IMG/VR virus record: IMGVR_UViG_2687453388_000001
Source of the DNA: an uncultured virus (IMG/VR IMGVR_UViG_2687453388_000001)
Lineage: Duplodnaviria > Heunggongvirae > Uroviricota > Caudoviricetes
Direction: 5' to 3' (one strand)
DNA length: 64,000 nucleotides
Below the pieces are notes generated by a model. It ran no database searches, had not been told where the DNA came from, and saw only the letters and a program-made list of their open reading frames with translations. Positions 1 to 25,395 of this stretch are shown in pieces; the first letter of the stretch is position 1, and each line of letters starts with the position of its first letter. Both the position numbers and the translations under genes were made by a program.

Positions 1-504
1 GTGCCTATTTTTGTATTAAATGTAATAAATGAAAAGTTTATATGTATACAGAAAGACTATATGGTAATATATTCAATTAACGAGAAAAAGAATATTAGAA
101 AGATATTTTATATTATTTTGGGGACTGAATTAATATTTTATATTTTGGGACAAATTTTTTTTCAAGGAATTAATTATTTTATAACAGGTGAAGTGTATTT
201 AATTAGTATTAAGTTTAATGTATTAACAATTTTAGAAATTCTATCTGCAAGTTATATAGTTCTATCTATTTTATTACTATTAAAAAAGGATTTGTTTACT
301 TATATAAACTATTACATTTTATTAATGGTACTTTTAGTAGTTAATAGTGGATATATTACATTTCCGATGACTATAAAAGTTTTAAGTTTACTACAACATG
401 ATTATATAAAACTACTACTATCAAGAACATTTTTGTTTTTGTTAACCTTCTTTATTTTTAAAATGTCTCTTAAAAGATATAGTAGTAAATTTTATGGTGG
501 ATAA
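1..504 (+). CDS. Multi-pass membrane protein, probably 5'-truncated by the window edge
   Basis: Very hydrophobic ORF with several TM-like stretches; very AT-rich; no upstream context visible. Confidence 0.5.
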   Translation: MPIFVLNVINEKFICIQKDYMVIYSINEKKNIRKIFYIILGTELIFYILGQIFFQGINYFITGEVYLISIKFNVLTILEILSASYIVLSILLLLKKDLFTYINYYILLMVLLVVNSGYITFPMTIKVLSLLQHDYIKLLLSRTFLFLLTFFIFKMSLKRYSSKFYGG

Positions 505-506
505 TA

Positions 507-836
507 ATGGATAAATTGGCATATATTGGAGTTATAAATCATGATGAAAATGTTGAATATCCATTAAATTTTTCCAGTGATGGTATTTATGAAGTTGTTT
601 GTAAATTTAATGGTGGATGTGAAATAAAAATCAAATCAAGTAATTATATAGATGCTCATGAAATTCATAAAGATTATTATAAATTTCACATTAATGTTTT
701 TCTGCCAATTATTGGACTAATAGGTTTAGTATATGGGGTAAAGGAAAAGGATAAGTTGTTTATGGCATTAAATATCCTTTTGATTTTATTACTTCCTATA
801 ACAATGTTCGTAGGTCATCTAGTAGGATCTCCTTAA
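507..836 (+). CDS. Hypothetical protein with C-terminal TM segments
   Basis: ATG follows the stop of the previous ORF; hydrophilic N-half and two hydrophobic helices at the C-terminus. Confidence 0.4.
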   Translation: MDKLAYIGVINHDENVEYPLNFSSDGIYEVVCKFNGGCEIKIKSSNYIDAHEIHKDYYKFHINVFLPIIGLIGLVYGVKEKDKLFMALNILLILLLPITMFVGHLVGSP

Positions 837-1308
837 GTAATATAATAAGCTTAGAGTAAAATTTTGTAAATAATCTTAAAAAGATATAAGTTTATCTGCT
901 TATAGCATTTTATCTCTCCACTTCCTTCCCATAAGTGATTTTCATAGTTTTTCCTATACTGAAAAAGGTCAGAAAATTCTTCTTTATTCAAAGAATGCTC
1001 TTGCATAAGGGTATTCTTTTTTATTGCAACTTATCGAGTCTGATTAATATTTCTTTTATGTTTGGTAATATTTTATAGATTTCTAAAATTTCATTAGTAG
1101 CTATTTTATAAATAGAAAGTTCGATATAATACTTCTCTGTAAATTGGTTTTATTCAGTTTTTTTACATTTTTATACTTCATGATGTAAGATCTTTATTTC
1201 AGTTTCAATTTTTTAAAATTTATTCAGTGGATGTTGTATATCATAAGAAAATAACTAGCTTTAAATCAATTTCTCCAAACCTAGATTTTATATCTACATC
1301 TATTTATT

Positions 1309-2289
1309 TTAGTACAGATAAGATTGAGCGATTACATCAATACGATTATGTCCTAAGTATTTGCTGGTTATTAACATAGCTTTTCGATCTAATATTTCTC
1401 CAGCTCTATCATTTCTCATGATGTATCTTTCTCCTCCTTCTGAAATTAAACCACCAGGTATTTCATCTATTGGTCTTGCATAATGATTATAAATTCTCTT
1501 GGCGTATACTGCTCTGTAGTGGTGGTTGTCATAATGAGAAGGTAATTTTGGTGCTATTTTAAGCTCTCCAGCTTCTTTAAAAATATTTATTATTTCATCT
1601 GTTTCTTCTTTATCTTTGCCCATGATTAAAGCTAAGCGTTTTTTTCCACCTTTTCCTTGTCTAACTTTTACATAATATTTTCCGTTGATTTCTTTTAAAT
1701 CAACCCCTCTTACAGCTTCCATTTCTTTTTTTCTTAATCCTGTAGAGCTTGTTATTTTAGAAAATTTTCTTTCTAGCTCTTCTGATATGTGTTTATCTCT
1801 TTTAGCTTCATATCGACTTCTTTTAATTGATTTTCTTGTCCTTGGAGCTGTCGCTATAAAGTTTGTAGATGATGTTCTTAAAACCTTTGCTATAGCTGAT
1901 TTAGATGTGCTAATTGAGTAAGCAGATAAGTCTTGATTTGTTAAGTTTTTCAGATATTCATTTACGTGTTCTGTTTTAACTTGTTGCATTTTCTTTATTT
2001 CAGGATAATTTTCTTTCAAAAATTCTGCAAATTTATAACATTGTTTTTTGTATGTCTTATAAGTTGTAACGCTATAAATTTTATTTATTGTTGTAGTTGA
2101 TAAATCATTTTTATCGTCATTTCTTGATGTACTCATACCATCATTTAACATTCTTGTTAATCTATCATAAATCTGATTTTTTAAAATGTTTTTTTGCTTT
2201 CTTTTATCCCATTTTTTAGTTTTTTTCTTTTCTTCATCTATTATTCCAAATTCTTTGTTAAAAGCTTTGTTTGTGATATTAAAAGACAT
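1309..2289 (-). CDS. Tyrosine recombinase-fold protein (candidate atypical relaxase or resolvase)
   Basis: Catalytic pattern TGLR...GKGGK...HHYRAVYA...LGHNR...SY (R-K-H-R-H-Y); N-terminal IYSxxTxxxY core-binding-like region; RBS AAAGGAG upstream. Confidence 0.8.
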   Translation of the reverse strand: MSFNITNKAFNKEFGIIDEEKKKTKKWDKRKQKNILKNQIYDRLTRMLNDGMSTSRNDDKNDLSTTTINKIYSVTTYKTYKKQCYKFAEFLKENYPEIKKMQQVKTEHVNEYLKNLTNQDLSAYSISTSKSAIAKVLRTSSTNFIATAPRTRKSIKRSRYEAKRDKHISEELERKFSKITSSTGLRKKEMEAVRGVDLKEINGKYYVKVRQGKGGKKRLALIMGKDKEETDEIINIFKEAGELKIAPKLPSHYDNHHYRAVYAKRIYNHYARPIDEIPGGLISEGGERYIMRNDRAGEILDRKAMLITSKYLGHNRIDVIAQSYLY

Positions 2290-2440
2290 AGAATGCTCCT
2301 TTCAAATATATAACTATCTTTTTAAAATTAAAGCTCTTAAAAACGATTCTAGAGCCTTATTTGTTACTCTAATTGTTAAGACTAAGCTTTTTATACTACC
2401 GAGTCCGTAGAAGCTTCTAAGTTGTCCAATCTAAGACAAA

Positions 2441-2508
2441 ACACATTTTTTAAAGAGCTTGGCTTGCTCTAAAGTACACATTTTTAGATTGATAGCTTGG
2501 CTTGCTAT
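2441..2508. repeat. Two tandem units ACACATTTTT...AGCTTGGCTTGCT, each forming a small hairpin (candidate oriT or binding site)
   Basis: AGAGC-TTGGCTT-GCTCT (2454-2470) and ATAGC-TTGGCTT-GCTAT (2492-2508): identical 7-nt loops with compensatory stems. Confidence 0.6.
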
Positions 2509-2749
2509 TTAATGCTTTTGTAAGTGAATTCCTACACTATACATTTTTTTACATACTTAAAATTTTTGCTCTATAAATCTTTTTTATTTTTTTCTTACTT
2601 CATATTTTGCGACTTCCTCTCTTTGTTTCCTCATTTTTGATCACTTATCTTTTTTATTTTCTCCATACCATCAATCTTCTATTTATAATTTGTCAGAAAA
2701 GGTTCTTAATAACAAAAGAGTTTAAAAACTTATCCTTGGTAAATACCCT

Positions 2750-2792
2750 AAATCTGTTTATACGTCCATAAATGGACCGTATAAACAGATTT
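2750..2792. repeat. Long near-perfect inverted repeat upstream of the rep-like gene (candidate origin)
   Basis: AAATCTGTTTATACGTCCAT-AA-ATGGACCGTATAAACAGATTT, with one bulge. Confidence 0.7.
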
Positions 2793-2884
2793 TATTTATT
2801 GGAAATCCTGTGTAGAAAATAAAAATATTAAATTTTCTGACATATAAGAGATAGATTAAAAACTTTCTTTTATATGGGGGAATT

Positions 2885-4039
2885 ATGAAAATAGAAAAAA
2901 ACATCTTAGTAAGATATGAGAAATTTCAACGCATTGGCTTTGATAGAGTGAAATTTAAGAATGTAAGAGTTACCGAGTATGAGATTAATCACTTAATAAG
3001 CTTATATCAGAACTCATATGGAATAACGAAATTTAGTTATTATAGAAAAGAACTGAAATCCATTCGAATTGAAAGGGGAGGAATTGGGCGATTGGAGATA
3101 AGAAGAGAGAATTGTTGCAACATAGATTGTGGCTTATATGCAAGAATAGATTTTTCGCCAACGGACATTCTAGGACAAAATATAGAAAATTTTTCTTTAG
3201 AAGAATTAAAAGATGTGGTTGTGGAAATTAAAAATATATTATACGAAGATTATAAAATTGAGATAGACATATCAAATGTCATTTTTAACTATTGTGAAAT
3301 TAACTACAATTATTTAACGACAGGTAATACTAAAGATTTTGAAGACCCATTACGTACTCTGGTTAGATTTATCCCGTATATGAAAATTTGCATAGATATT
3401 GAAAACCATAAAGAGAAAGACGGCTATGAATCCAAAACAATAACAGCACAAAATCAACGACATAAAATTACATTTTATGATAAATTAAAAGAAACAAAAA
3501 AGAAGCATAAAAATAAAGAAATCGTCATCGTTGATGAAAATGGAGAGATACTAAATGGGAGTATTTATAGATATGAGCATACAATAAAAAAAACAGATAA
3601 GTTTAAAGATTTTTTTGAAGAAACAAATCTTTTTAATTTAAATGAAGAAGTGTTTCGTCAAAAATTATTCTTATATTTAGAAAAAAATCTTTTTAAGCCA
3701 TATGAAAAGCAAAAATTAATGTGTAGAGACCTTCTTGTGAAAGCCGTTAAAAAATATAGGGAAAAGGATCGAAGAGGAAAAGAGTGGGGAAGCTTAATGA
3801 TTAGCGATATCCTAATTCAAGAAAGGCAATTAGGTTATCAAATACTTTTTGATTCAGATGATTTGTTAGAAATTGTTAGTGAAGTTTTTTTAAAAGATAA
3901 AAACAAAGGGCGCATTTTAGGATATATAAAAAGACTGTTATGCAAGGAGCCGTATCTTTATTATTCTAAAAATAAAAAAGAGAAAGTTGAAAATTTAGTT
4001 TATAGTATAAAAAGTCAATTTCATGACCTCATTAAATGA
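2885..4039 (+). CDS. Putative rolling-circle replication initiator (Rep_trans/phage CRI-like)
   Basis: Motifs CEINYN, ITFYDKLKE and YRYEHT resemble the YDK..E / RxE signature of Rep_trans-type initiators; adjacent hairpin. Confidence 0.5.
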   Translation: MKIEKNILVRYEKFQRIGFDRVKFKNVRVTEYEINHLISLYQNSYGITKFSYYRKELKSIRIERGGIGRLEIRRENCCNIDCGLYARIDFSPTDILGQNIENFSLEELKDVVVEIKNILYEDYKIEIDISNVIFNYCEINYNYLTTGNTKDFEDPLRTLVRFIPYMKICIDIENHKEKDGYESKTITAQNQRHKITFYDKLKETKKKHKNKEIVIVDENGEILNGSIYRYEHTIKKTDKFKDFFEETNLFNLNEEVFRQKLFLYLEKNLFKPYEKQKLMCRDLLVKAVKKYREKDRRGKEWGSLMISDILIQERQLGYQILFDSDDLLEIVSEVFLKDKNKGRILGYIKRLLCKEPYLYYSKNKKEKVENLVYSIKSQFHDLIK

Positions 4040-4261
4040 GGATAGAAGTGATATGTATTGTGAAAAAGGATAGATATTCGATTGGTGTAAGTAGTAGAAT
4101 TTAAAGAAAGTATTACTCTCTTTAGTTAGTGTAAAAGATAAGTAGCAATCTCTTATAATAATAGGAAGAATTTTCAATGACGACAAGTTTGTTATTGGAT
4201 ATTAATTCTGACATATAAAGACTGTAAGAAGTAACTATATATATTAGGAAAGGAAATTATT

Positions 4262-4618
4262 ATGATATTAGAAAAAGAAGAATTGTTGGATAAGGTTTTT
4301 AAAAGTGTAGTCATGAATATTATGTCGGTAGAAAAATCTATTTTAAGTGAAGAAGTGTGGCTAGATGTTGGAGGACACTATTATTGTGTAGATGGCGTCA
4401 GAGATATTTTACTAGAAAGAGAAGGTGAGTCACTTCAGTACTTTTTAAGCGATATGATAGTAACCATAAGATGCTATGCAGAAGTTTATGGAAGTTTTGA
4501 TATAGAGCTTGATTTAGAGAGTATAGGCTTTAAAAACTTCATAAAGTTGTCCCATTTGTTTAATGAAAAATTCTTTAATAACTGGCATAGCTTTGTGTAT
4601 GAGATCCAAAGAGAGTGA
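4262..4618 (+). CDS. Hypothetical acidic protein
   Basis: RBS AAGGA, 118-aa ORF, upstream TTCTGACATATA motif. Confidence 0.6.
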   Translation: MILEKEELLDKVFKSVVMNIMSVEKSILSEEVWLDVGGHYYCVDGVRDILLEREGESLQYFLSDMIVTIRCYAEVYGSFDIELDLESIGFKNFIKLSHLFNEKFFNNWHSFVYEIQRE

Positions 4619-4643
4619 CTAAAAAATTATAATTAAATCTAGT

Positions 4644-4687
4644 AAAAATAAAAGCTTGAGATTGTCTAACCTCAAGCTTTTATTTTT
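4644..4687. terminator. Bidirectional intrinsic terminator
   Basis: AAAAATAAAAGCTTGAG...CTCAAGCTTTTATTTTT between convergent genes. Confidence 0.8.
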
Positions 4688-5283
4688 TAATTCACAGCTA
4701 AATCATCCACTATTAAATCCTCATAGTCAACTGTAATTTCATCATAATTTTTCCTTGCAGAGACTAGTATTGCCGATACGAAAACAAAGTCATTTATTTC
4801 GAGCGAAACATCATTTACACGCATGTTTTTAGAGTATTGAAGTGTAATTACTTGCTCTCTATAGTCTCGCACTTGAATCGTAATCCAATTATTGAACTCT
4901 TTGATGCTTAAGATAGAACCGCTAAGAAAAACTCGTGAAAATGGGTTTTTAAAAGAAAAACCTATATTTTCTATTTCAAAGGCTTCTGATAACAAAGTGT
5001 TCTCTAAGACTATTTTTTCACCAAGAAAATACTGTTCTTTTCTACCTTCATATAAATAGGGAATGACAGGGCTTTTCACAAAACCTGTAATATAAACAGT
5101 TTGATTCATTTTAAAATCATGAATATCTATAGATTCAAAGTATACTTTCATATAATTTGGCTCTCTTTTCCCATTAATAAAGATTGTTAAGTATGGATTT
5201 CTTTCCTTAAAACCTCCTTTTCCTACAATCCTTCCGCGGCAATAAAACTCGTTTAATAGTGGAATTTTCCTATCTTTTTTCAT
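4687..5283 (-). CDS. Putative tandem OB-fold single-stranded DNA-binding protein
   Basis: Two halves each starting with an SSB-like strand (NEFYCRGRIV / SRVFLSGSIL) and containing V.I.G-type strands (TVYITGFV / FVFVSAIL); RBS AAGGAG. Confidence 0.45.
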   Translation of the reverse strand: MKKDRKIPLLNEFYCRGRIVGKGGFKERNPYLTIFINGKREPNYMKVYFESIDIHDFKMNQTVYITGFVKSPVIPYLYEGRKEQYFLGEKIVLENTLLSEAFEIENIGFSFKNPFSRVFLSGSILSIKEFNNWITIQVRDYREQVITLQYSKNMRVNDVSLEINDFVFVSAILVSARKNYDEITVDYEDLIVDDLAVN

Positions 5284-5423
5284 TTTTTACTCCTTTCTTC
5301 AATTAACTATTGAATATATGCATTAAAAGATTTTCAATAAAAAAGTCTGTGTGGAGAAAAACACGAATCAATACTTTTTTCTGACATATACAAGGTGAAA
5401 TCAAAATTAGGAGGCAATTTACC

Positions 5424-5597
5424 TTGTATAATAAAAATAGCGTAAAAGATTGTTCTTATGAATTAGATGGGTTGGCACGTCTCTTACAAGAATTAATAGA
5501 AAAGTATGCAGATCAGTTAGATTTTGAAAAATTGGAAGTACCGCCAAGATGTTCAGAAAAAAATAAAAATGAGGATAATATTAATTCATCGGATTAG
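5424..5597 (+). CDS. Small 57-aa protein upstream of the serine recombinase (absent from the ORF track)
   Basis: RBS AGGAGG at 5409-5414, TTG start, MYNKNSVKDCSYELDGLARLLQELIEKYADQLDFEKLEVPPRCSEKNKNEDNINSSD. Confidence 0.55.
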   Translation: MYNKNSVKDCSYELDGLARLLQELIEKYADQLDFEKLEVPPRCSEKNKNEDNINSSD

Positions 5598-5606
5598 GTT
5601 ATTGTA

Positions 5607-5636
5607 TTGACTTTTATATTATGATTTATGTAAAAT
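5607..5636 (+). promoter_or_regulatory. Putative sigma-A promoter of the recombinase
   Basis: TTGACT-18 nt-TAAAAT. Confidence 0.45.
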
Positions 5637-5684
5637 ATAGGTATAACTATAACGTGAAAATATGTCCAAACTAAAGGTGGAAAA

Positions 5685-7358
5685 ATGAAAAATAAAAAGG
5701 CGTATGTATATACAAGAGTGTCAACATCTATGCAAATTGACGGTTACTCACTTGATGCTCAGGAAGAAAGAATAAAACAGTATGCAAAAGCTTATGGTAT
5801 AGAAATAATAGAAACCTATAAAGATGCTGGAAAATCAGGAACATCTATTTCAGGTAGAAATGAATTCATAGCTATGCTTAATGATATAGAAGCTGAAAAA
5901 GATAAAGTTGATTATGTAATGGTTTTTAAATTATCTAGATTTGGAAGAAATGCAGCGGATGTATTGCAGTCATTGCAAGTCATGGAAAATCATAATGTAA
6001 ATCTGATTTGTGTTGATGATAGTTTAGATAGTTCTAAAGATTCTGGAAAGCTTGTTATAACAATTCTATCGGCAGTAGCAGAAATGGAACGTGAAAATAT
6101 ACTTTCTCAAACTATGGAAGGAAGGAAACAAAAGGCAAGAGAAGGAAAATGGAATGGTGGTTTTGCTCCAATTGGCTATTCATTAGATAATGGAGAATTA
6201 GTTGTTAATGAAGATGAAGCTAAAGCAGTAAGGATGATTTTTGATTTATATGCTAATTCAGATATGGGAGCCAATGGAGTATCTAAGTATTTAGTTTCTT
6301 TAGGTATTAATAAACCTATAAGACAAAATGGCAAGAATCCATATTTTTCAGCTAGTTTAATAAGACAAATATTGGATAATCCTGTATATAATGGGAAAAT
6401 TGCATATGGAAGAAGAAAAACAATTAAAGATAAAACTACTGGTAAAATTAAATTAGAAAAATCTGATCATTATATTATAGCTCAAGGAAATCATGAAGCT
6501 TTAATTGATGATGAGTTGTGGAATACAGTACAGGAAAAAAGAAAATCTCAAGCTAAAAAGTATGAGAAGATAAATAGAGGAAAAGATGAGAGAGTTCATA
6601 TCTTATCAAATCTAATAAAATGCCCATATTGTGGTGCTGGTTTGTATGGAAACAAAAGCCGTAAACGTAATAAAAACAAAGAAGGAGAGCATTACAAAGA
6701 TTATTACTATTACGGTTGTAAACATAGACAAATGATGAATGGACATAAATGTACTTTTAATAAACAAATTAGAGCTGAATTAATTGAAAAAGAAGTTGAA
6801 ACAATAATTACTCAAGTAGTTAGTAATCCTACTTTTGCCAAAAAAATTGAAGAAAAAATCAATATTCAAATAGACACAAAAGAAATTGATGAAGTTATTA
6901 ATAAGCACTTAGCGAAGATTAGGCAATTAACAGGTACAAAAGCATCACTAATTAATCAAATAGATTCTTTAAATTTTGAAGATAAACATTATGATAGAAA
7001 ATACACCGATTTAAATCTTAGACTTGATGCTATATATGACCAGTTAGAATATGCAGAAATGCAGTTAAATGATAGCAGAAAAAGGAAAGAGGCAATTCTT
7101 GAAGAAAAAATAACCTCGGATAATATTTATAAGATTCTTGTAAATTTTAATAGCCTTTATACAGTTCTTTCAGATATCGACAAGAAGAGATTACTTAACG
7201 AAATGATAGAAGAAATTCAAATTTATGACGAAAAAACAGAAAAGGACACTTGGATAAAATCGGTTGTTTTCAAGCTTCCGCTTATAGATAATGAGATTGA
7301 CTTTGGTTTGGACAATAAAGATAATGTCGAGTGTGTTGCTCTGCTTGTTAAAGCCTAG
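5685..7358 (+). CDS. Large serine recombinase (integrase)
   Basis: YTRVST catalytic motif, SRFGRN, recombinase domain, zinc ribbon CPYCG...YYGC...C, coiled coil. Confidence 0.95.
   Translation: MKNKKAYVYTRVSTSMQIDGYSLDAQEERIKQYAKAYGIEIIETYKDAGKSGTSISGRNEFIAMLNDIEAEKDKVDYVMVFKLSRFGRNAADVLQSLQVMENHNVNLICVDDSLDSSKDSGKLVITILSAVAEMERENILSQTMEGRKQKAREGKWNGGFAPIGYSLDNGELVVNEDEAKAVRMIFDLYANSDMGANGVSKYLVSLGINKPIRQNGKNPYFSASLIRQILDNPVYNGKIAYGRRKTIKDKTTGKIKLEKSDHYIIAQGNHEALIDDELWNTVQEKRKSQAKKYEKINRGKDERVHILSNLIKCPYCGAGLYGNKSRKRNKNKEGEHYKDYYYYGCKHRQMMNGHKCTFNKQIRAELIEKEVETIITQVVSNPTFAKKIEEKINIQIDTKEIDEVINKHLAKIRQLTGTKASLINQIDSLNFEDKHYDRKYTDLNLRLDAIYDQLEYAEMQLNDSRKRKEAILEEKITSDNIYKILVNFNSLYTVLSDIDKKRLLNEMIEEIQIYDEKTEKDTWIKSVVFKLPLIDNEIDFGLDNKDNVECVALLVKA
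7326..7358 (+). other. Probable att junction: rumA-like 3' end (VECVALLVKA*) in frame with the recombinase
   Basis: GTCGAGTGTGTTGCTCTGCTTGTTAAAGCCTAG encodes VECVALL, typical of the C-terminus of RlmD/RumA methyltransferases (...HVEcV.LL). Confidence 0.65.
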
Positions 7359-7382
7359 AACTCTTTGATAAATGGAAATAGT

Positions 7383-7409
7383 AAAAAGCCTTAATTTTAA
7401 GGCTTTTTG
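7383..7409 (+). terminator. Intrinsic terminator
   Basis: AAAAAGCCTTAA-TT-TTAAGGCTTTTT. Confidence 0.75.
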
Positions 7410-7879
7410 TCGTATGTAGGGGAAGTATCAGAGTGAGAGTTTAAGCTGAGTATCTTGATGTGATAGCGTGATTGAGAGAGTATTTATTTCCATAAACCCT
7501 AGGGGTATGGACTTGTTTCCATAGAAGAAGAGTTTGTGGAAATAAACATACCCCCTAAATTATTACCTAGATGGTCGTTGAAGTTTGAGTTCTATATATT
7601 GATACTATATATTTTAAATTTAGTATTTTTAAATCAGTAAAATAATATCCTTATTTTAAAATTTAGAGAAAGATAGTATAATAATAGAAAAGAAGAGAAT
7701 TCGTGGATGTTAATAAATATAATCTTATTTACAATCAGAATATTGCTGAGAATAGTCACTGTCTTTTAAAAGCTTTATTCGTAAAAGATATAGAAATATA
7801 ATATTTTTTTGAAGAGGTAAAGGAGAAAATAAGACCTGTTTAATTTAGAGTACTGATAAATCAGAATGGAGATGATTTT

Positions 7880-8398
7880 TTGCGAACATACTACAATAAA
7901 GAAGAACTAAAAGCTGAAATAGAGAAAACATTTGAGAAATATATTTCAGAATTTGATAATATTCCAGAAAATTTAAAAGACAAGAGAGTTGATGAAGTTG
8001 ATAGAACTCCAGCAGAAAACCTTTCATATCAGGTTGGATGGACAAGTTTGGTTCTTAAATGGGAAGAAGATGAAAGAAAGGGGCTTCAAGTAAAAACACC
8101 ATCGGATGAATTTAAATGGAATCAGCTTGGTGAATTATATCAGTGGTTCACAGATACCTACGCTCATTTATCTCTGCAAGAGTTGAAAGCAAAATTAAAT
8201 GAAAATATTAATTCTATATATGCAATGATTGATTCGTTGAGTGAAGAAGAATTATTTAAACCACATATGAGAAAATGGGCTGATGAAGCGACTAAAACCG
8301 CCACTTGGGAAGTATATAAGTTTATTCATGTAAATACAGTTGCACCTTTTGGAACTTTTAGAACTAAAATCAGAAAATGGAAAAAAATAGTGTTATGA
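7880..8398 (+). CDS. ClbS/DfsB (DUF1706) family four-helix bundle protein
   Basis: DRTPAENLSYQVGW, FKWNQLGELYQWF and FIHVNTVAPF motifs. Confidence 0.8.
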   Translation: MRTYYNKEELKAEIEKTFEKYISEFDNIPENLKDKRVDEVDRTPAENLSYQVGWTSLVLKWEEDERKGLQVKTPSDEFKWNQLGELYQWFTDTYAHLSLQELKAKLNENINSIYAMIDSLSEEELFKPHMRKWADEATKTATWEVYKFIHVNTVAPFGTFRTKIRKWKKIVL

Positions 8399-8589
8399 AT
8401 TATATTTTTTTACATAAACAAAGTATAAATTTCTAATTATCTTTTTATATTTTCTTAAATGCTCGTAAAGCCTTATTCTATGTGCTTTCGAGTATTTTTA
8501 CTGTAGGAAGATACTTCACGTTTCTTTGCATATTTCCTCATGTCTTAGCTGTCAGAAGTGGTAAATAAGTAGTAAATTCATTTGTACTA

Positions 8590-9807
8590 CTAAGCAACAA
8601 GACGCTCCTGTTGCTTCTCTTTATTCAAGCGTTTCATTTCTGCCATTGCAGAATCGAATGTTGCATGTGCGTAATAGTTCAGCGTCATGGCTATATTAGC
8701 ATGTCCCATAATGTACTGTAATGCCTTTGGATTCATTCCTGCATTTGCATAGTTGGTACAGAATGTATGTCGCAAACTATGTGGAGTGATGTGTGGCAAT
8801 TTATCCTCGTTATACTTATTGTATTTCTTAACAAGACCTTTCATCATGCCGTTGTAATCACTTGCCACTTTTGGATAGTTCTTTCTATTAAGAAAGAGGA
8901 AATCACTATATCCATCAATCTCAACACGCTTATCATTCTTTCGATTCGCTAACACTCGCTTAAATGCTTGATAGGCTTCTTCAACCATAGGAACTTGACG
9001 TTCGCCACTTTTGGTCTTTGGTGTTTCAATGTAGTACCCAATTTCAGTATCTCTCAATAGCTGATGGTCTATATTGACAAGACGATTCTCAAAATCTAAA
9101 TCTGGAAGTGTCAAACCACCAAACTCTGAAATACGAAGACCTGTTTTTAAGAGTATCAGAATTTCATCATAATTTTTGCTGTAGGTTTTATCAGCTTTTG
9201 CAAAGGCTAACAGTTTTTCTTCCTGTTCTTCTGTTAGTACGGTCTTAGGGACAGTATCATCATCAAGAACTGCTTTCAGTTGAAAGTCAAATGGATTCTT
9301 CCGAACACAATCATCTTGTATAGCAATATAGAATGAAGCCTTTAAAGAACGTTTGTAGTTATTGATGGTTTGATAAGCATAACCATTTTCACTCATTCTA
9401 ATAGCCCATTCTTTAGCGTCTGATGGCTTAATACTGTCAATACTTCTTACACCTAACTTGTCTTTCTTCAAAATATCCATAAGATATTTGCGTCCAGTTT
9501 CAGTGTTTTTTCTAACCTTTGGTCTTTGAGCGTTCTGTTTTGCGTAAAGCTGGCAGAGTGTCATTTTCTTTCCTACAACATCAATACCATCATGAATGTC
9601 TTTCTGTAACTCTGCGATTTTCTCTCTAAGTGAGATACAATCACGCTTTCCTGCTGGTACTCGGTCTGTAGCCACAAGTTTCCACGAGTAAACAAATTGC
9701 GGTTCTCCAAATGAATCTATATATTTGTATAAGTATCTTCCGTCTTTTCGTTGGCTCTCTCCAGTCTTTAAGATTCGACCTTTATTGTCACGTCTTTTTT
9801 CTGACAT
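8590..9807 (-). CDS. int: Tn916 tyrosine integrase
   Basis: MSEKRRDNKGRILKTGESQRKDGRY arm-binding domain; TGLR, HSLRH, MGH...Y. Confidence 0.98.
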   Translation of the reverse strand: MSEKRRDNKGRILKTGESQRKDGRYLYKYIDSFGEPQFVYSWKLVATDRVPAGKRDCISLREKIAELQKDIHDGIDVVGKKMTLCQLYAKQNAQRPKVRKNTETGRKYLMDILKKDKLGVRSIDSIKPSDAKEWAIRMSENGYAYQTINNYKRSLKASFYIAIQDDCVRKNPFDFQLKAVLDDDTVPKTVLTEEQEEKLLAFAKADKTYSKNYDEILILLKTGLRISEFGGLTLPDLDFENRLVNIDHQLLRDTEIGYYIETPKTKSGERQVPMVEEAYQAFKRVLANRKNDKRVEIDGYSDFLFLNRKNYPKVASDYNGMMKGLVKKYNKYNEDKLPHITPHSLRHTFCTNYANAGMNPKALQYIMGHANIAMTLNYYAHATFDSAMAEMKRLNKEKQQERLVA

Positions 9808-9888
9808 GGCATTTGCTCCTTTCCTTTATGGAAAGAGCCTTGATACGACTTAATACTATTTTATCATATACAAGACCCTTTGGCGACG

Positions 9889-10092
9889 CTAGATTGCGTC
9901 CAATGTATCTATAATTTTTTCAAATTGTTTTCGTTTAATCTGAATACGATTGCCATTCATAATCAGCCAATTTGCATTTTTATTTTCCTCTGCCAAGCGT
10001 CGTAGCTTGTTTTCGCCAATACGAAAATATTTTGACGCTTCTTCAATGGTTAGGGTATAACGTTCCCAAATAGGAATGTCAGTCTGCTTCAT
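9889..10092 (-). CDS. xis: Tn916 excisionase
   Basis: [31 protein letters not shown]. Confidence 0.97.
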
Positions 10093-10327
10093 AAAATCCT
10101 CCTTTCCAAATCACTTATTTGGATTTCATAAAAGTTGTTTTACCAGCAATCGAACAGCTTTAGCAAAGCTCACGGGAGTTCCACCCCTGCATGGTTCTCA
10201 TGTAGCCATACTCATTGCCTGCGACGGTTTTATCACGCTCGGACTATTGACTGTATGGGAGTATCATTATCACGATAAGAATGTCGTTGCAGGCAATCCT
10301 GCTAAAGATTGCTTCTCGGATCACTAA
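10076..10327 (+). CDS. Tn916 orf5 (dubious coding status)
   Basis: Position and size match orf5, antisense to xis. Confidence 0.35.
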
Positions 10328-10552
10328 CATGAATCGCTCGCTATCTTTATAAGATAGGTCATGGCGGTTAGTTCCGTTGGCTCTTTTCTTATCGAAACGT
10401 ATTCGATTACTTTTATTCAGTTTTCAAAGAACAATGGCTCGTTAGCCTATCAAAACACATTGAAAGCTCAATATGCTTTGGTGGAATAACAAACCTCCCT
10501 GTTCGGGAAGCGTGGAATGGTTTAGCACGCTTCCACGAAAGGAGAGAGGATA

Positions 10553-10783
10553 TTACTTAATTTCAAATGACAAAATCTTTGTAATCAGTCTGGTTTCCAT
10601 TCTTCCACGTAAGACTTCATCAACGACCATACTTTGATTGCCATATTCATCTTTCATAAGTCGTAGGGAACGCTTCGTTATGTACCCTCTGTAATGATGT
10701 AGAATCTGGTTAATCGCTTCGGTATCGCCATCTGTTGCCTTTACAATGAGAGGAAAGGGAATCATAGGATATTGTGTTTTCAT
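10553..10783 (-). CDS. Tn916 Orf8 HTH regulator
   Basis: Sequence and position between orf7 and xis. Confidence 0.9.
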   Translation of the reverse strand: MKTQYPMIPFPLIVKATDGDTEAINQILHHYRGYITKRSLRLMKDEYGNQSMVVDEVLRGRMETRLITKILSFEIK

Positions 10784-11211
10784 TCTTCAAATTCCTCCAT
10801 AAACTTTTTAATTAAGGCTAGTCCACTGGTTCTATGCCGATAGACAGTAGAACGGTTCAATTTCAACAGGTCTGCAATTTCTGAATCGCTCATGTCCATA
10901 AAGTAAAACAGCAGTAGAATTTCACGTTTCTTGTCTGGCAACTCACGTAATGCTTCACTCAACAAATCATTTTCAACGCCTACTGATAACCCATTGAGTG
11001 TAAAAATCTGAAAGTCAGTTGAATAGTTATCTGTTGTCGCAAACTGGCTAACAAGATAATCGCCAACATCCGAAAAGGACACCTCACGCTTTGCAATCCT
11101 TGAAAGATAAAGCATATAATTCTTTCGCTCGTCTTCCATAGCACGTTTACAGATATAGTCAAACTGATTTTCTATTGTGGTCTGAAAAGAAGATGGTTTC
11201 ATGTTTCTCAC
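10780..11211 (-). CDS. Tn916 Orf7 sigma-factor-like regulator
   Basis: Sigma region-4-like HTH (MSDSEIADLLKLNRSTVYRHR). Confidence 0.9.
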   Translation of the reverse strand: MRNMKPSSFQTTIENQFDYICKRAMEDERKNYMLYLSRIAKREVSFSDVGDYLVSQFATTDNYSTDFQIFTLNGLSVGVENDLLSEALRELPDKKREILLLFYFMDMSDSEIADLLKLNRSTVYRHRTSGLALIKKFMEEFEE

Positions 11212-11706
11212 CCCCTTTCTGTCTAGGAAAGGAAGTGAGCCTTGCTCGTTTATCTCCTTTCACTCTTAGTCCCAATGTGAAAGGGGGATTTGTTGCATTA
11301 CTGATAAATAAACTTTGTAAAAAAGTTCTGAATAGCCAAAAAAGCATATAAACAGATTTATTTCTCTGTTTACATGCTTCTGTTATTCTATCTATATGAT
11401 TTATAAAACCACATTGGTGGACGTACTTATCTATTGCAGATAGACGACTTTTTTTGACAAGAACCCAATGTAAGGAAATTTATTGTATATGATGTACTTC
11501 ATGGCGACGTTGACCTCCAACAAACCGCCATTTGGAAGTAATATACAATATTTTAACAGCGTAAATAGCACTACCATATAACGGTTTTTTTTATTGGCGT
11601 TTAGTAGTGCTTTTTATTAAATATAAACCTATAAACCATATAACACGTTTTTCTATACCTGTTTTTAATTCAGTAGGAACAATAAAATGTATAGAGGTGG
11701 TCTACT

Positions 11707-12060
11707 ATGCGTAAAAAAGAAGATAAATATGATTTTAGAGCCTTTGGTTTAGCCATTAAAGAAGCTCGATTGAAACGAGGTTTAACTCGTGAACAAGTGG
11801 GAGCATTGATTGAAATTGACCCACGGTACTTAACTAATATTGAAAATAAAGGGCAACACCCCAGCATACAAGTTCTTTATGACCTTGTATCGTTACTTCA
11901 TGTTTCCGTTGATGAATTTTTCTTACCTGCTAATAACTTGGTAAAAAGCACCCGACGATTACAGATAGAGAAATACATGGATAGCTTTACAGACAAAGAA
12001 CTATCCTTAATGGAATCTTTAGCCAGCGGTATCAACGAAGCAAGAAACATCGAAGACTAA
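11707..12060 (+). CDS. Tn916 Orf9 XRE-family repressor
   Basis: [25 protein letters not shown]. Confidence 0.92.
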
Positions 12061-12119
12061 TTAAAAGAATCCATACATAACGGAAAGAGCCGATAAAATG
12101 AGATTGTATTAATCTCATT

Positions 12120-12308
12120 TTATCGGCTCTGCGTCTTTGCGTCTGGCTCTGTAATCACAGTTACTTTGAACTGCTTTATTTCAATTAAATTTTCTTGTCT
12201 GCATTTCGGACAATAGAGGGGGAATTTTTTTAATTCAGTATCTTCCCTTATCTTTAATCGTGTTTTATTTCCACATACAGGACACAATATCCACTTGTAG
12301 TTTATAAT
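12120..12308 (-). CDS. Tn916 Orf6 cysteine-rich KTR protein (non-ATG start)
   Basis: Translates to ...WILCPVCGNKTRLKIREDTELKKFPLYCPKCRQE...; RBS GAGGAG. Confidence 0.7.
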   Translation of the reverse strand: MINYKWILCPVCGNKTRLKIREDTELKKFPLYCPKCRQENLIEIKQFKVTVITEPDAKTQSR

Positions 12309-12405
12309 AACTATCTCCTCCTTTACACTTTAATTCAAATCTTTATTAAAAAATATTTCATCTTATTTAACAAGAAACCATATTTATATAACAACATAAA
12401 ATACA

Positions 12406-14325
12406 CTAAGTTATTTTATTGAACATATATCGTACTTTATCTATCCGACTATTTGGACGACGGGGCTGGCAAACAGGTTCACCGGTAGTAACATGGTACC
12501 CTTTTAACTCTGTTAAACAAACACTACGTCCATTTGTAAAGAAAGTTAAATCACTACGATATTCTTGAATACACCGAGCAGGGATTTCTCCACTAAGAAT
12601 GACCTCATTATTTTTCAATTGAGTGTCTACGATGTTCGCACAATATTTAGGAGCATCGTTGTATGCTCGTGAAAGATATTCCTGTGGCGCATAAATTTTA
12701 AAACTAAGATATGGCTCTAACAATTCTGTTCCAGCTTTTTTTAAGACTTGTTCCAATACAATAGGAGCAAGCATCCGAAAATCTGCTGGGGTACTAACAG
12801 GGCTATAGTATAAGCCATACTTAAAACAGATTTTACAGTCCGTCACATTCCAACCATACAATCCTTGTTCACAGCCATAGCGTATCCCCTCCATAACTGC
12901 ATTTTGAAACGATTGATTTAAGTATCCAAGAGAAACCGAGCTCTCATACTGCATTCCACTTCCCAACGGAAGCGGTGATACAGATAAACCAATGGAAGCC
13001 CAGAAAGGATTTGGCGGCACTTCGATGTGAATGGTATATTCTGCATTTTTTAACGGTCTCTCCATATAAATGACTGTAGGCTCTTTTAGTTCTATCTCCA
13101 CATGATACTTTTCTTGCAACAGTGCACTAATCACTTCCATTTGTACTTTCCCTAAGAAAGAAAGTATAATTTCATGTGTCGTAGAATCCACGTAATATCG
13201 TAGAAGCGGATCACTATCTGAGATTTCCAAAAGGGCATCAAGCAACATTTCTCTCTGTTCAGGTTTACTCGGTTCAACAGTTGTTTGTAGTAGAGGGTGC
13301 GGATTTTCAATCTTTTTTCTCTGTGGCAATAGTTTTGTATCTCCAAGAACACTATTTAACTTCAAAAACTCATTTTGCAAAATAACAATTTCTCCAGAAT
13401 AAGCTCTATCAATCTTACATAATTCACCATTTATTGAAGTATACATTTCTGTAACTTTTATTTTTTCTTTTTCTGATACTCTAACCGAATCTCGTAAATG
13501 TAGTACTCCACTATAAAGGCGTATATATGCAAGACGTTGTCTTTTTTTTGTATATTCAATTTTGAAAACATTTCCGCAAAGTTCAGACGGACCTCGATGT
13601 GTTGATGAATAAAATTTATTAGTAATAACTTCTATAAGGTTATCAATCCCTATATTACTTTTTGCACTTCCATGATAAAGAGGGAACAGAGAACAATTCT
13701 GAAATCTTATGCTTTCCTCTTGTTCGAGTTCCAATGCTTCTAATGATTTACCGGACATATATTTCTCTAAAAGGTCATCGTTTCCCTCTATTACCGTATC
13801 CCATTGTTCAGATTCGGTAAAGTTCGTCACACACATATTAGGATACAGTTCTACCTTCTGTTTGATTACAATTTCGGCAGAAAGTTTCTCTTTAATATCC
13901 TGATAAACCGTTGATAAATCAATTCCATTTTGGTCAATCTTATTGATAAAAAAGATTGTGGGAATCCCCATTTTCCTAAGTGCATGAAATAATATACGAG
14001 TTTGTGCTTGTACGCCATCTTTTGCAGAAATCAGTAGAATTGCCCCATCTAAAACTGATAATGAACGATATACTTCTGCTAAGAAATCCATATGTCCTGG
14101 CGTGTCTATGATGTTCACCTTCGTATTTTCCCACTGAAAAGAGGTTATTCCTGTCTGAATTGTAATTCCTCTCTGACGTTCTAAAAGCGTATTATCCGTC
14201 CTCGTTGTACCTTTGTCCACGCTTCCTAATTCTGTAATCGCTCCACTGTTATATAATAAGCTTTCTGTTAAGGTAGTTTTTCCTGCATCAACATGAGCTA
14301 AAACTCCAATATTAATAATTTTCAT
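12406..14325 (-). CDS. tet(M): Tetracycline ribosomal protection protein Tet(M), 639 aa
   Basis: [18 protein letters not shown]ase; [13 protein letters not shown]-terminus [11 protein letters not shown]. Confidence 0.99.
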
Positions 14326-14340
14326 GTGATTTTCCTCCAT

Positions 14341-14427
14341 TCAAAAACCCAAAAGGGCATAAAAATCCCAGTGATAAATACTTTTATCACTGGGATTTTT
14401 ATGCATAACCATAGGCATACAAAGCAT
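14341..14427 (-). CDS. tet(M) leader peptide (orf12) with attenuator hairpin
   Basis: MLCMPMVMHKNPSDKSIYHWDFYALLGF; long inverted repeat GCATAAAAATCCCAGTGATAAA...TTTATCACTGGGATTTTTATGC. Confidence 0.9.
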   Translation of the reverse strand: MLCMPMVMHKNPSDKSIYHWDFYALLGF

Positions 14428-14701
14428 ACAGATATTCTCCGGATACTTTAGAATCACATGATAAAGGTATTCTTAAACTGGGTACAAAAAACTAAGCCCT
14501 CCTAAAAAAGGACATCCAATTATTTGTTCCCACTATCAAATTGACAGTTTATTTAAGAATACCTTGCCGCATATTTATTAACTCCTTTTAAATAGATACT
14601 TAAATAATAGCACGTAAGAGCATATTTGTAAAGGAATCTCCAATTTTTTATCAAAGAGAGTACGTGATTACAAAATAGCTGTAATAATGTACCAATATTT
14701 G

Positions 14702-15634
14702 TTATTCTATAATCTTCCAATTACTCCCGTTCTTTTCAAGTACCAAATCAAATTGAGATACCTGCGTTGCTTTGGTCTGCTGGTCGATATACTCCACTGT
14801 CAGCGATACCGTGACTTGATTATCCTTACGATTGTGAATAGGATTTACCAGTTCTTGAAAGATGTACTCTTTTCCGATTGGTTTTAATATCCCGTCATTC
14901 ACATAGTAGGAAAGTTCACTGGCTGTCGCTGTAGGATAGAGCTTGAAGAACGTCGTTAAAAACTCATTGATTTCATTGGTTGTAATGGAATCAACCGTCC
15001 CCTCACTTTCAATGGCTTTTGGTTTATAACTTGATTTCTTAGGTATGTTGGTAATGGTCGGATTCTTAACCAGTACCATATTTCCAGAACCATCTACATA
15101 GACACTCACTATATAAGCAGAGTGGACGGTCTTTGTATTTTCTCCCTCTGTAATGAGCTGGTCTACACTGTAGGTTACATTAAACTCATTGTCGCCAGTT
15201 GGCTCTACCGTCCATATCTGAAATCCTCTTACAGAAGACGATACAGGAATATCTTTGCGTACTGTATCAACATTGAGAGCTTGAAGTTCATCTGTCAGAT
15301 AGCCTTTTAGACTTTCCATTCGATTATCAATGGACTTATCGGATTGCTCCCATGAATAGTAGACTTTCGCAAAGTTCTCTACAAAATTTTCTACATGATG
15401 AGTATCAACGTATTCCTTTTCTATGATAGTTGTTTCGTGAATAGTATGAGTATCTATAGCTGTAAAGTGCTTGAATATCGCAAAGCTGAAACTAAGCCCT
15501 AAAAGTACCCACAAGGCAATCACAACCTTTTTATGAGGATTGACCTTATAGACACGAGGTTTCTTTTCCTTTGGTATCTGTTTTTCTTTATTCTGATTTT
15601 TTCTAAATTTCATCATTAAATCTTCCTTTCTCAT
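14702..15634 (-). CDS. Tn916 Orf13 (TcpC/VirB8-like)
   Basis: Single TM plus extracellular domain; gene order. Confidence 0.92.
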   Translation of the reverse strand: MRKEDLMMKFRKNQNKEKQIPKEKKPRVYKVNPHKKVVIALWVLLGLSFSFAIFKHFTAIDTHTIHETTIIEKEYVDTHHVENFVENFAKVYYSWEQSDKSIDNRMESLKGYLTDELQALNVDTVRKDIPVSSSVRGFQIWTVEPTGDNEFNVTYSVDQLITEGENTKTVHSAYIVSVYVDGSGNMVLVKNPTITNIPKKSSYKPKAIESEGTVDSITTNEINEFLTTFFKLYPTATASELSYYVNDGILKPIGKEYIFQELVNPIHNRKDNQVTVSLTVEYIDQQTKATQVSQFDLVLEKNGSNWKIIE

Positions 15635-16632
15635 TGTTTGATTCGTCCTGCTCCCACTAAATGCTGTTGCCAGTAGGGGCTTGTTAAGTCGGCATAACCG
15701 ATTGGGTCGCCTGCATGAAACATACGGTTATTGCCAAGGTATATCCCAACATGAGTAATATAAGAGCCAGCGTTATAGGTAGAATGAAAGAAAACTAAAT
15801 CGCCAGCTTGTGCTTCCGATAGTGGGATATGCTGGGTCACATCATATTGCTGTTGTGCGGTTCGTGGTAAGTTAATTCCAGCTTTTCCATACGTCCATTG
15901 TGTCAGTCCGCTACAATCAAAAGAAGTAGTCGGGGAAGCTCCACCGTAAACGTATCGCCAGCCCTCATATTTCAGTGCTTCGTCCATGATGGCTTGTACC
16001 GTATCATCATCAAACTCTGTTGTGACAAGATACTGCGTTACCAGTTGCACATAAAACATATTGCCATAGTTGTATCGCCAGCCCCCATTGATAGGTATGG
16101 CTATGGGATTGGGGTAAGACACTTTTTCGCCACCTGAATACTCTTTTGAGAAACTTTGAGCCAGTTCAAAGGTATATTTATTTCCACGATTAGCCACATA
16201 CCCTAAGAAACCACCACCATAATTGTAGGACTGGATAACCGATTCTAAATCTACACTGAGCCTTTCGCTACTGGCTAATAATTCACTGAAATACTTCACA
16301 CCTTGCTTAATGGATTCTTCTGTACTCAATGAATTAGGTGGAAGACCGAGGGATTCCGAGGACTGCATAACATCTTCCGCAGTACCGCCCGATTCCACCT
16401 GTATAATCGCAAGAAGTATGTTGACATATTCTTCAACGCCATATTCTTTGGCATATTTTTCTACCATAGGCTTATGAGCCAGCACTTCTGCGGAAACATT
16501 CACACCTCCATAATGAATATTGGAAATTCCGCTGTCCTGTTCATCTGAAAATAAAATGGCAACAAACAGAAGCAGTGAGAAGACCATCAAGAATAATCCA
16601 GAACCACCAATCACTAAAGTTTTCAACTTCAT
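15631..16632 (-). CDS. Tn916 Orf14 lysozyme-like/NlpC-P60 cell wall hydrolase
   Basis: QVESGG...DVMQSSES; FDCSGL...HVGIY. Confidence 0.95.
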   Translation of the reverse strand: MKLKTLVIGGSGLFLMVFSLLLFVAILFSDEQDSGISNIHYGGVNVSAEVLAHKPMVEKYAKEYGVEEYVNILLAIIQVESGGTAEDVMQSSESLGLPPNSLSTEESIKQGVKYFSELLASSERLSVDLESVIQSYNYGGGFLGYVANRGNKYTFELAQSFSKEYSGGEKVSYPNPIAIPINGGWRYNYGNMFYVQLVTQYLVTTEFDDDTVQAIMDEALKYEGWRYVYGGASPTTSFDCSGLTQWTYGKAGINLPRTAQQQYDVTQHIPLSEAQAGDLVFFHSTYNAGSYITHVGIYLGNNRMFHAGDPIGYADLTSPYWQQHLVGAGRIKQ

Positions 16633-18806: not shown

Positions 18807-18808
18807 AT

Positions 18809-21256: not shown

Positions 21257-21746
21257 AAAATTCACTCCTAACTGCTGTAATGGCTTCTTGTGGCTGGTTT
21301 CTGCCAAGCGTTACTTTTTTTCCTGCATAGGTCAGCTTTGGTCGCAGTGCATAAGCAATGACAGACTTCAAAAATCCATAAGGCTTTTTACCATCAAAAG
21401 TTTTTGTAGACATAAACCATGTGAAAGCCACAGGAATCCCAAAGTATTTGAGAAATGCTCCCTCTATCATGGAAAGAGGGGGCAAGTTGCCAAGTATCAT
21501 CACTGCAAAGAGTGACACGACAAACCATGTCATTTGCGTAAAGGTTATGGGAAACGGAAGTCTAAAATCATTGATAGAATACAGTACCTTTTCCACAGAC
21601 CAGATACTGGTATAGCTTCGTATTTTCTTCATGTAATCAATCCTTTCATAAAAAATAGGGGTAGCTGATTGAGCCACCCCGTAAAATAGAAAATCTGCCA
21701 GTAGTAATGTACCGACAGATTTAATAGACGATTTCAAAAATCCCAT
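21240..21746 (-). CDS. Tn916 Orf17 (TcpE family); true start may be downstream (MKKIRSY)
   Basis: Gene order; KTFDGKKP motif. Confidence 0.85.
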   Translation of the reverse strand: MGFLKSSIKSVGTLLLADFLFYGVAQSATPIFYERIDYMKKIRSYTSIWSVEKVLYSINDFRLPFPITFTQMTWFVVSLFAVMILGNLPPLSMIEGAFLKYFGIPVAFTWFMSTKTFDGKKPYGFLKSVIAYALRPKLTYAGKKVTLGRNQPQEAITAVRSEFYGISN

Positions 21747-22218: not shown

Positions 22219-22334
22219 ATATTCACGTCCTTTCTTTGTAGAGATTCAAAAATCCCTACCGCACTTCGTTTGGTGTACCATTCCTTTGCGGAACATAAGA
22301 AAACCACTTATATTCCACAAAAGAACGGTTTTAT

Positions 22335-22556: not shown

Positions 22557-22598
22557 AAAAATGTTCTCCTCTCTATATTCAATGAATTTGTATTTGAG

Positions 22599-23804: not shown

Positions 23805-23917
23805 TCAAAAAGGCGTATGTCAACTTTTAAAGCCCATTTGACATACGCTGAAATTTTGTAAATCCCTTGTAACCAAAGGATTTTCTAATGTTTTTTTGAC
23901 TGTTTCCTGTCGATTTG

Positions 23918-23980: not shown

Positions 23981-23981
23981 A

Positions 23982-25367: not shown

Positions 25368-25395
25368 GCGAAAAAGTCTCCTTTCTACCTAGCGA

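Follow-up and report, generated by a model that had tools for sequence, protein, structure and literature searches.

The first 7330 positions of a 64,000-nucleotide stretch of DNA from an uncultured virus record (IMG/VR IMGVR_UViG_2687453388_000001; the whole stretch is referred to below as the window) make up the right portion of an integrative element of 12,794 bp that is inserted in rumA and in which a gene for a tyrosine-recombinase-fold protein accompanies that of a serine integrase. Since the window begins at the start of the record, the left part of the element was read from full copies in relatives, in agreement with the original prediction that only the right part is visible. That prediction, which proposed a new type of mobilisable element built from a serine integrase, a rolling-circle replication (RCR) Rep, a single-stranded-DNA-binding protein (SSB) and a tyrosine-recombinase-fold protein nicking an origin of transfer (oriT), had correctly placed all four open reading frames (ORFs), in a DNA that is indeed AT-rich (GC 27.5%). 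The features that delimit the island and encode its two recombinases are these:

Positions 1 to 7330, plus strand: right part of the integrative element in rumA; erm(A) lies in the left part, outside the window, in full copies.
Positions 1309 to 2289, minus strand: tyrosine-recombinase-fold protein of 326 aa, a putative relaxase, with a core-binding domain and the residues R186-K213-H256-R259-H314-Y324.
Positions 5685 to 7358, plus strand: large serine integrase with Resolvase, Recombinase and Zn-ribbon domains, reading through attR into the last rumA codons.
Positions 7290 to 7330, plus strand: right arm of attR, ending in the GA crossover dinucleotide (7329-7330) and forming an imperfect inverted repeat of the left arm.
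Positions 7331 to 7358, plus strand: displaced 3' end of the host rumA; the sequence past GA varies between hosts.

Between the GA cores in rumA, the attL-to-attR length is 12,793-12,794 bp. On insertion, rumA acquires a new 3' end and its old one becomes fused to the integrase, a kind of fusion known for other rumA elements (PMC4120198). Supported by these att sites, the serine enzyme is the integrase of the island, as had been claimed. Integrase and att sites are thus present, as in integrative and mobilisable elements (IMEs), and a mating pore of its own is absent from the element. Positions 1-7330 are 99.99-100% identical to loci L011, L014, L015 and L080 (loci are designated by L numbers). 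The near-identical loci come from Anaerococcus vaginimassiliensis, A. ihuae, Peptoniphilus duerdenii and Urinicoccus massiliensis, share ~12.8 kb and diverge beyond it; the full copies, from two Anaerococcus species, Peptoniphilus and Urinicoccus, are 99.6-99.9% identical across 12.8 kb, with differing flanks. The exact sequence of the tyrosine-fold protein occurs on at least 1000 contigs and the Rep-bearing form of the island on more than 900; in the 90% clusters to which the element's proteins belong, the taxa named are S. agalactiae, Finegoldia, Aerococcus, Vagococcus and Veillonella. Identity of this order across genera suggests that the island has spread between them. In the window itself, the genes that flank the island cluster with proteins of S. 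agalactiae, which makes a group B streptococcus the likely host. In the full copies, the left part holds erm(A), whose methyltransferase product matches RrnaAD (E 4e-72), a CopZ-like protein, an IS remnant and ORFs without an assigned role. No family of HUH relaxases or type IV secretion systems (T4SS) was found among the ORFs of the element, including the six left-part ORFs of at least 100 aa in a full copy, and the predicted lack of a canonical relaxase or T4SS accordingly holds to the left of the window as well.

The tyrosine-recombinase fold assigned to the product of 1309-2289 was borne out on several counts. The protein contains a SAM-like core-binding domain (PF02899 and PF12834 above cut-off), and R186, K213, H256, R259, H314 and Y324, the catalytic pentad and the tyrosine nucleophile, are invariant in 36 of 36 aligned relatives. 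Cre, XerA, XerH and IntI are the best Foldseek matches of its confident structural model (pLDDT 86.6), though the likeness is loose (E ~5e-5 to 2e-4, TM only 0.2-0.36). A search of PDB sequences with the protein returned nothing, and its scores against the Xer equivalogs lie below the cut-offs (29.6 bits against 335 for XerC, 17.8 against 330 for XerD). Values of dN/dS for the gene are 0.18-0.34 against five variants of the island and 0.65 against the near-identical L013 (uncorrected), a pattern that shows the signature of purifying selection in five of the six comparisons.

Upstream of this gene, three small inverted repeats were found:

Positions 2442 to 2470, minus strand: hairpin unit 1, a candidate oriT/nic site, with a 5-bp stem, a conserved 7-nt loop and then an A-tract/TGTG tail.
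Positions 2477 to 2508, minus strand: hairpin unit 2, with loop and tail as in unit 1 and a different stem.
Positions 2422 to 2439, minus strand: third small inverted repeat, with 5-bp arms and an 8-nt spacer, just downstream of the hairpin units.

The two hairpin units stand in tandem 150-220 nt upstream of the tyrosine-fold gene. Their exact motif is limited to close relatives and L036; in Anaerococcus relatives the loop is kept and the stems are different, and streptococcal plasmids have a version with an 8-nt loop. In its general form, a hairpin-plus-tail unit on the coding strand no more than 260 nt upstream, the site was found in 21 of 27 non-redundant relatives (at least 43% identity). 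Among the controls, it turned up in 3 of 972 random windows, in 5 of 1080 shuffles and on 0 of 27 opposite strands. Part of the 27 relatives had served to define the pattern; of the 14 metagenome relatives, which were inspected only after it had been set down, 9 have the unit. When the loop alone was searched for, the stem positions were found to pair in 9/9, 8/9, 9/9 and 9/9 units and in 37/37, 37/37 and 34/37 units. Two or three pair types occur at each stem position, which constitutes covariation, although relatedness inflates the counts. This support is comparative only, as the region of the hairpin pair folds as a whole no better than shuffles (z -0.02). K-mer enrichment over 40 diverse upstream regions returned mainly ribosome-binding sites. 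By eye only, the unit resembles the short oriT motifs of pIGRK.

At Xer and lox core sites, the arms are the conserved binding sites. Here, the loop is fixed and the arms are exchangeable, and a single-strand hairpin substrate therefore fits better than an Xer/lox core; a core site of the Xer type, with conserved arms and a variable spacer, is not matched by the upstream site. Conservation of this kind suggests a folded single strand whose loop is sequence-specific, as at origins of transfer or replication, rather than a classical core site. This covarying hairpin site is the main new observation. No published description of it, of the family as a relaxase, or of the family-wide pattern set out below was found in the literature listings and openly readable passages searched.

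Were replication the function served, the tyrosine-fold protein might nick and rejoin the hairpin to complete rolling-circle replication or single-strand conversion; alternatively, the hairpins might be RNA operators in the leader. Such explanations, which we regard as improbable, would account for hairpins that lie 90-220 nt upstream on the coding strand only, and for the few unpaired positions, which are G-T on that strand. They would also suit the plasmid pBAS2, which lost replication on removal of the region (PMC5779722, PMC3643907), but they are difficult to reconcile with a site that stays with the gene in theta-type, rolling-circle and Rep-less carriers. No Rfam match comes near the cut-off either: three matches were obtained across 800-7700, all far under it.

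A transfer origin is instead in keeping with the distribution of the gene, which in its genomic contexts resembles that of a mobilisation gene. The family profile gathers 717 representatives (clusters at 50% identity) at E<=1e-30, and the family is present in 8 of 300 genomes of the class around P. duerdenii, P. duerdenii included. The gene was located at 177 loci; of the 139 short ones, 40 have terminal overlaps and are thus circular. The Reps beside the gene are unrelated (Rep_3, Rep_trans, RepL, Rep_2-helicase). Islands with an integrase of their own harbour the gene as well: in distant relatives, a serine integrase query matches 8 loci and a tyrosine integrase query 15; in L066, a serine integrase and the tyrosine-fold gene are combined with restriction cargo, and no Rep was seen nearby. 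The scan of neighbouring proteins, which covered 213 of 667 ORFs plus 8 extra, turned up a canonical relaxase at 2 loci. Carrier plasmids in PLSDB are typed non-mobilizable in 19 of 19 and 23 of 23 cases (perhaps 7-10 independent lineages), compared with 532 of 1460 (36%) and 177 of 342 (52%) plasmids with related Reps; since the carriers fall into few lineages, the typing contrast is modest. The 19 of 19 agree with the expectation that relaxase-based screens would miss the tyrosine-fold gene. The Streptococcus suis plasmids L002 and L003 (erm(T), tet(O)), typed non-mobilizable, also carry the family.

The same survey shows that most carriers replicate (through Rep_trans here, and through a putative Rep in four of the six island variants described below), and a role in maintenance, which counts against a relaxase, is therefore possible. 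The tyrosine-fold protein might be an Xer-like recombinase acting at the upstream repeats to resolve multimers, both of small plasmids and of the island once it is excised and replicating, while the island spreads otherwise: by means of an oriT only, by cis-mobilisation within larger elements, or by transduction. We hold this explanation to be unlikely, though by no means negligible. The full core-binding and catalytic build of a true recombinase, with its complete pentad, is what it would require, and it fits a family that is common on small replicons, island variants most of which have a Rep, and islands that stand in tandem with other elements at rumA (L011 17450-20016, L014 17450-19508; likewise L017 1638-7229). 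It would leave unexplained a loop that is conserved while the arms covary, the scarcity of canonical relaxases beside the gene, the retention of the gene in L013 and L066, where no Rep is visible, and the small serine resolvase that several carriers possess already (clear matches on eight carrier contigs: L018, L036, L041, L109-L111, L130 and L158). Published support for maintenance comes from pBAS2 of Caldicellulosiruptor bescii, whose 'XerD', Cbes2777, is a full-length family member (100%, E 1e-46, 32% identity over 279 columns) and the only one on which experiments bear. Cbes2777 has been treated as a multimer resolvase and described as possibly needed for replication (PMC5779722, PMC3643907). 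Yet several ORFs were removed at once, so that the evidence is not gene-specific, and no canonical Xer site was found according to these accounts. pBAS2 is a plasmid, and the present case is an island.

The remaining two genes of the predicted four belong to a module that is optional:

Positions 2794 to 5376, no strand assigned: optional module of 2.6 kb (Rep, 118-aa ORF and SSB-like ORF), with ~65 nt in its place in six relatives.
Positions 2885 to 4039, plus strand: predicted Rep_trans-fold rolling-circle initiator of 384 aa, from Foldseek on a low-confidence model.
Positions 4262 to 4618, plus strand: 118-aa ORF in the optional module; family not found.
Positions 4687 to 5283, minus strand: 198-aa protein with an unconfirmed SSB-like fold, an ESM Atlas lead.

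Six loci (L009, L010, L013, L016, L017 and L083) are without 2794-5376 and share the integrase and tyrosine-fold region at 92-98%. L013, at 10,256 bp, has the same erm(A) cargo and neither the Rep nor the SSB-like gene, and the other five have restriction or OLD-nuclease cargo. A different putative Rep of 387-412 aa is present in four of the six variants, and a shortened one in L083. The absence of the module from six relatives rules out the four genes as a fixed core, and a new element type defined by the four-gene set is not upheld; what does stand is that the element has a constant part, which is the tyrosine-recombinase-fold gene. Cargo has also been exchanged, erm(A) being replaced by defence cargo (OLD nuclease and UvrD; restriction-modification-like genes) in L009 and L010 (11200-20900), L017 and L083 (12570-20970), L066, L119 and L124. 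An unannotated protein of 387-546 aa with a C-terminal helix-turn-helix (HTH), common to the variants and to small Anaerococcus plasmid-like contigs (L010 11196-12434; L018 3439-4908; L036 3393-5033), is likely an undescribed replication initiator.

Within the module, the Rep-like assignment of 2885-4039 is upheld by structure and not by sequence. There is no significant Pfam match; the model has a pLDDT of 55.6, and Foldseek ranks the RCR initiators 4cwc, 4cwe and 4cij first (E 6e-7 to 2e-5), the top six matches being RCR initiators followed by TBP, which is consistent with a TBP-like Rep_trans fold in so far as a low-confidence model permits. The tandem oligonucleotide-binding (OB) SSB claimed for 4687-5283 is unproven. 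Its SSB support is an ESM Atlas lead of 0.89 to a cluster with 39% PF00436 members, whereas no Pfam, NCBIfam or PDB-sequence match was obtained, hhalign detected no internal repeat (1.7%), and the fetched loci contained no reference SSB.

Could the Rep_trans protein itself be the relaxase, in the manner of the MOB_T-type IMEs that Tn916-like elements mobilise, with the tyrosine-fold protein as an accessory in re-circularisation or termination? Its fold and the Tn916-type element that adjoins the island would suit such a role, RCR initiators act as relaxases in streptococcal IMEs (PMC5357655), and it is the form with the Rep that occurs on more than 900 contigs. A distant pair of the same kind recurs beside rumA in L123, L124 and L129 (L124 6016-10140), where a 385-aa Rep, 24% identical to that of the window, is convergent with the tyrosine-fold gene. 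Nevertheless, the six variants without this rep, in other genera, share the integrase and tyrosine-fold module at 92-98%, and the Rep shows no significant profile match to the MOB_T of the window's Tn916 (0.6%), and we consider it very doubtful that the Rep is the relaxase.

The spread of the island in the absence of any known transfer gene, the mobilisation-like distribution of the tyrosine-fold gene, the scarcity of canonical relaxases beside that gene, the cis site upstream of it and the links to MpsA-type proteins incline us to the reading that the tyrosine-fold protein is an MpsA-like relaxase with an oriT upstream of its own gene, the excised circle being carried by a helper. The distribution and the upstream hairpin site speak for the claim that it nicks an oriT; the protein is not specifically close to TcpM or MobK, and the role itself is predicted. 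Under this model, the integrase would excise the island at the GA cores, and the tyrosine-fold protein, as a one-chain counterpart of MpsA plus MpsB of SGI1, would bind both hairpin-plus-tail units and nick one strand via Y324. A helper would supply the coupling protein and the pore, for which the Tn916-type element ~1.2 kb away in the window is one candidate, and a guess. The circle would then re-integrate in rumA of the recipient, supplying the replacement 3' end. Replication of the excised circle would fall to the optional Rep_trans module, which would not be required for spread.

Several observations weigh against such a relaxase. Transfer, excision, and nicking by the tyrosine-fold protein are predicted only, and in three isolate assemblies, in which the stretch lies on one 19.5-kb contig, neither a circular joint nor raised depth was seen, although contigs drop rare forms. 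The hairpin unit was missed in 6 of the 27 closer relatives, and no shared hairpin is evident in more distant family members. The relaxase screen of the circles rested on three queries, and L001, L002, L033, L044, L050 and L056 also have an RCR initiator of the type proposed as relaxase. The core-binding domain retained by the window's protein gives it the full build of a true recombinase, and is reported to be missing in TcpM, MobK and MpsA (PMC8152469). The protein matches none of the TcpM NCBIfam models, its profile match to TcpM is weak (72.8%, 91 columns), and that to MobK is absent (0.9%). It also misses PF12835, the MpsA-type transfer signature (PMC10484663), even at E<=1. Finally, there is the published treatment of Cbes2777 as a resolvase.

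The other elements of the island, including those that may govern its expression, are as follows:

Positions 1 to 836, plus strand: two cargo ORFs, one truncated by the window start (177 aa in full copies) and one of 109 aa; family not found.
Positions 2688 to 2698, minus strand: TTCTGACA(A/T)AT box upstream of the tyrosine-fold gene.
Positions 2750 to 2793, no strand assigned: 44-bp near-perfect palindrome, retained in Rep-less variants.
Positions 2835 to 2845, plus strand: TTCTGACA(A/T)AT box upstream of rep.
Positions 4206 to 4216, plus strand: TTCTGACA(A/T)AT box upstream of the 118-aa ORF.
Positions 4644 to 4687, no strand assigned: strong hairpin between convergent genes, likely a bidirectional terminator.
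Positions 5379 to 5389, plus strand: TTCTGACA(A/T)AT box upstream of the 57-aa ORF and the integrase.
Positions 5424 to 5597: 57-aa ORF downstream of the 5379-5389 box, ahead of the integrase.

The two long hairpins noted originally, at ~2750-2793 and ~4644-4687, are far more stably folded than shuffles (z -8.95 and -8.05), and on the circular contig L036 the homologous gene is preceded by a 39-nt match to the first. The shared upstream motif was likewise found: TTCTGACA(A/T)AT has 4 copies in 1-7331, where 0.03 are expected, and 0 in the remaining 56,669 bases. The copy at 2688-2698 is likely a promoter or regulator site, and the box may be a promoter read by a helper-encoded factor; a sigma-70 promoter scan of 2280-2900 gave 2 sites, which is chance level. 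The box stands ahead of four transcription units and recurs upstream of the distant homologues L112, L119, L124 and L129.

Taken at its widest, the proposal would be that the 717 clusters form a hitherto unrecognised Firmicutes relaxase family with core-binding and catalytic domains in a single chain, which cleaves a loop-specific hairpin and mobilises many small plasmids of streptococci and of the gut now classed as 'non-mobilizable', together with islands of integrase plus relaxase, among them a common erm(A) island present in both group B streptococci and anaerobic cocci, the four-copy box allowing a helper to switch the island on. This we put forward tentatively, as nearly as likely as not. 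It bears on the open question of how plasmids typed 'non-mobilizable', and islands that lack a relaxase, move from host to host, many streptococcal elements having an integrase and no relaxase (Coluzzi 2017), and the pairing of a defined protein family with a defined covarying cis site makes the relaxase question testable. If true, the proposal would explain how a widespread macrolide-resistance island crosses between anaerobic cocci and streptococci, and many small plasmids, including the erm(T)- and tet(O)-carrying plasmids of S. suis, would be reclassified. Should the maintenance role hold instead, the family would represent a new recombinase of plasmids whose unusual site resembles a hairpin, a result of moderate interest.

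Beyond the island, ~1.2 kb right of attR, window positions 8400-26000 hold what we take to be a Tn916-type element, with int at 8590-9807, tet(M) at 12406-14340 and transfer genes, and positions 27421-32730 encode an LPXTG surface protein of 1769 aa with about seven tandem 79-aa repeats, presumably Rib/alpha-like. A prophage with genes for DNA polymerase, methyltransferases, terminase, portal and tape measure proteins occupies 34500-64000; its portal ORF (55801-56877) seems short, perhaps through a frameshift. Immediately to the right of attR there is an inverted repeat (7483-7546), and a 229-bp part of a DUF1706 gene (7989-8217) has a second, slightly different copy in the three isolate assemblies.

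Comparison with described elements indicates that the island probably already bears a name. By size, site and erm(A), compared by description only, it is probably ICESag555/ICESag066 of Khan 2023 (PMC10044541): these two and the first part of ICESag082, which additionally has tet(M), are erm(A) elements at rumA in group B streptococci of several clonal complexes. The elements are there termed integrative and conjugative elements (ICEs), whereas the full copies of the present island are without conjugation genes, and the accessible text gives no mobilisation mechanism for them; that of PMC13006639 and PMC9504518 held nothing further on the island. IMESp2907 is similarly a 12.6-kb erm(TR) IME with a serine integrase in streptococci, but it has a MobQ relaxase, a replisome organiser and a maff2-like gene target (PMC5704250), whereas the present island has neither gene and targets rumA; IMESp2907 is thereby ruled out as its identity. 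'IMESp2907 homologs' with differing mobilisation genes are present in Anaerococcus (PMC7242567), and some of these may be the present island. The rumA serine-integrase elements vanG, ICE-r and IME_SpnAP200_rumA (PMC4120198, PMC5357655) share with it the GA crossover in the HVE codon region, the replacement rumA 3' end and an integrase fused to the last rumA codons, but carry canonical conjugation or relaxase genes, which it does not.

Tyrosine-recombinase-like relaxases on integrative elements are already known (MpsA; MOB_M), so that the concept behind the proposed new element type is not itself new. The MOB_M class, as given in bioRxiv 10.64898/2026.01.13.699239, comprises only three described members, TcpM, MpsA and MobK; the MOB_M profile rebuilt in that survey, and fitted to the species studied there, put the class first among chromosomal relaxases. 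On the best reading the present family works like a MOB_M relaxase, yet it is not classed as a member. With TcpM (pCW3) it has the tyrosine-recombinase fold in common and little profile similarity, and the profile comparisons revealed no close kinship to TcpM or MobK. The plasmid of MobK, pIGRK, is nevertheless alike in layout: RepL and one tyrosine-fold gene on a plasmid typed non-mobilizable (PMC8152469), as in the carriers pYA01-1 and pBAS2, with the oriT of MobK just upstream of its gene. PF12835 is matched by 19 of 36 family members at E<=0.01, and its cut-off is passed by 5 of 13 family proteins tested, a sample biased to known matches; a genome search with PF12835 (0 of 1 genome, 0 of 14 controls) was uninformative. 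PF13495, which resembles the domain of MpsB (PMC6414798), is matched by 31 of 36. The distance from HxxR to the tyrosine is 68 in the window's protein, as against 36 in the Tn916 Int and 43 in TcpM, and 72 in MpsA (PMC6414798). The inverted-repeat oriT near the gene in MpsA/MOB_M systems finds a parallel in the candidate cis site, alongside the weak PF12835 and PF13495 signals of the present family. MpsA and MpsB of SGI1 differ from the present protein in that the latter is one chain with its own core-binding domain, occurs in Firmicutes with a rumA serine integrase, and is found on small plasmids as well. In arrangement the two are alike, with an integrative element, a separate integrase, a C-terminal tyrosine and a long HxxR-Tyr spacing in both cases (PMC6414798).

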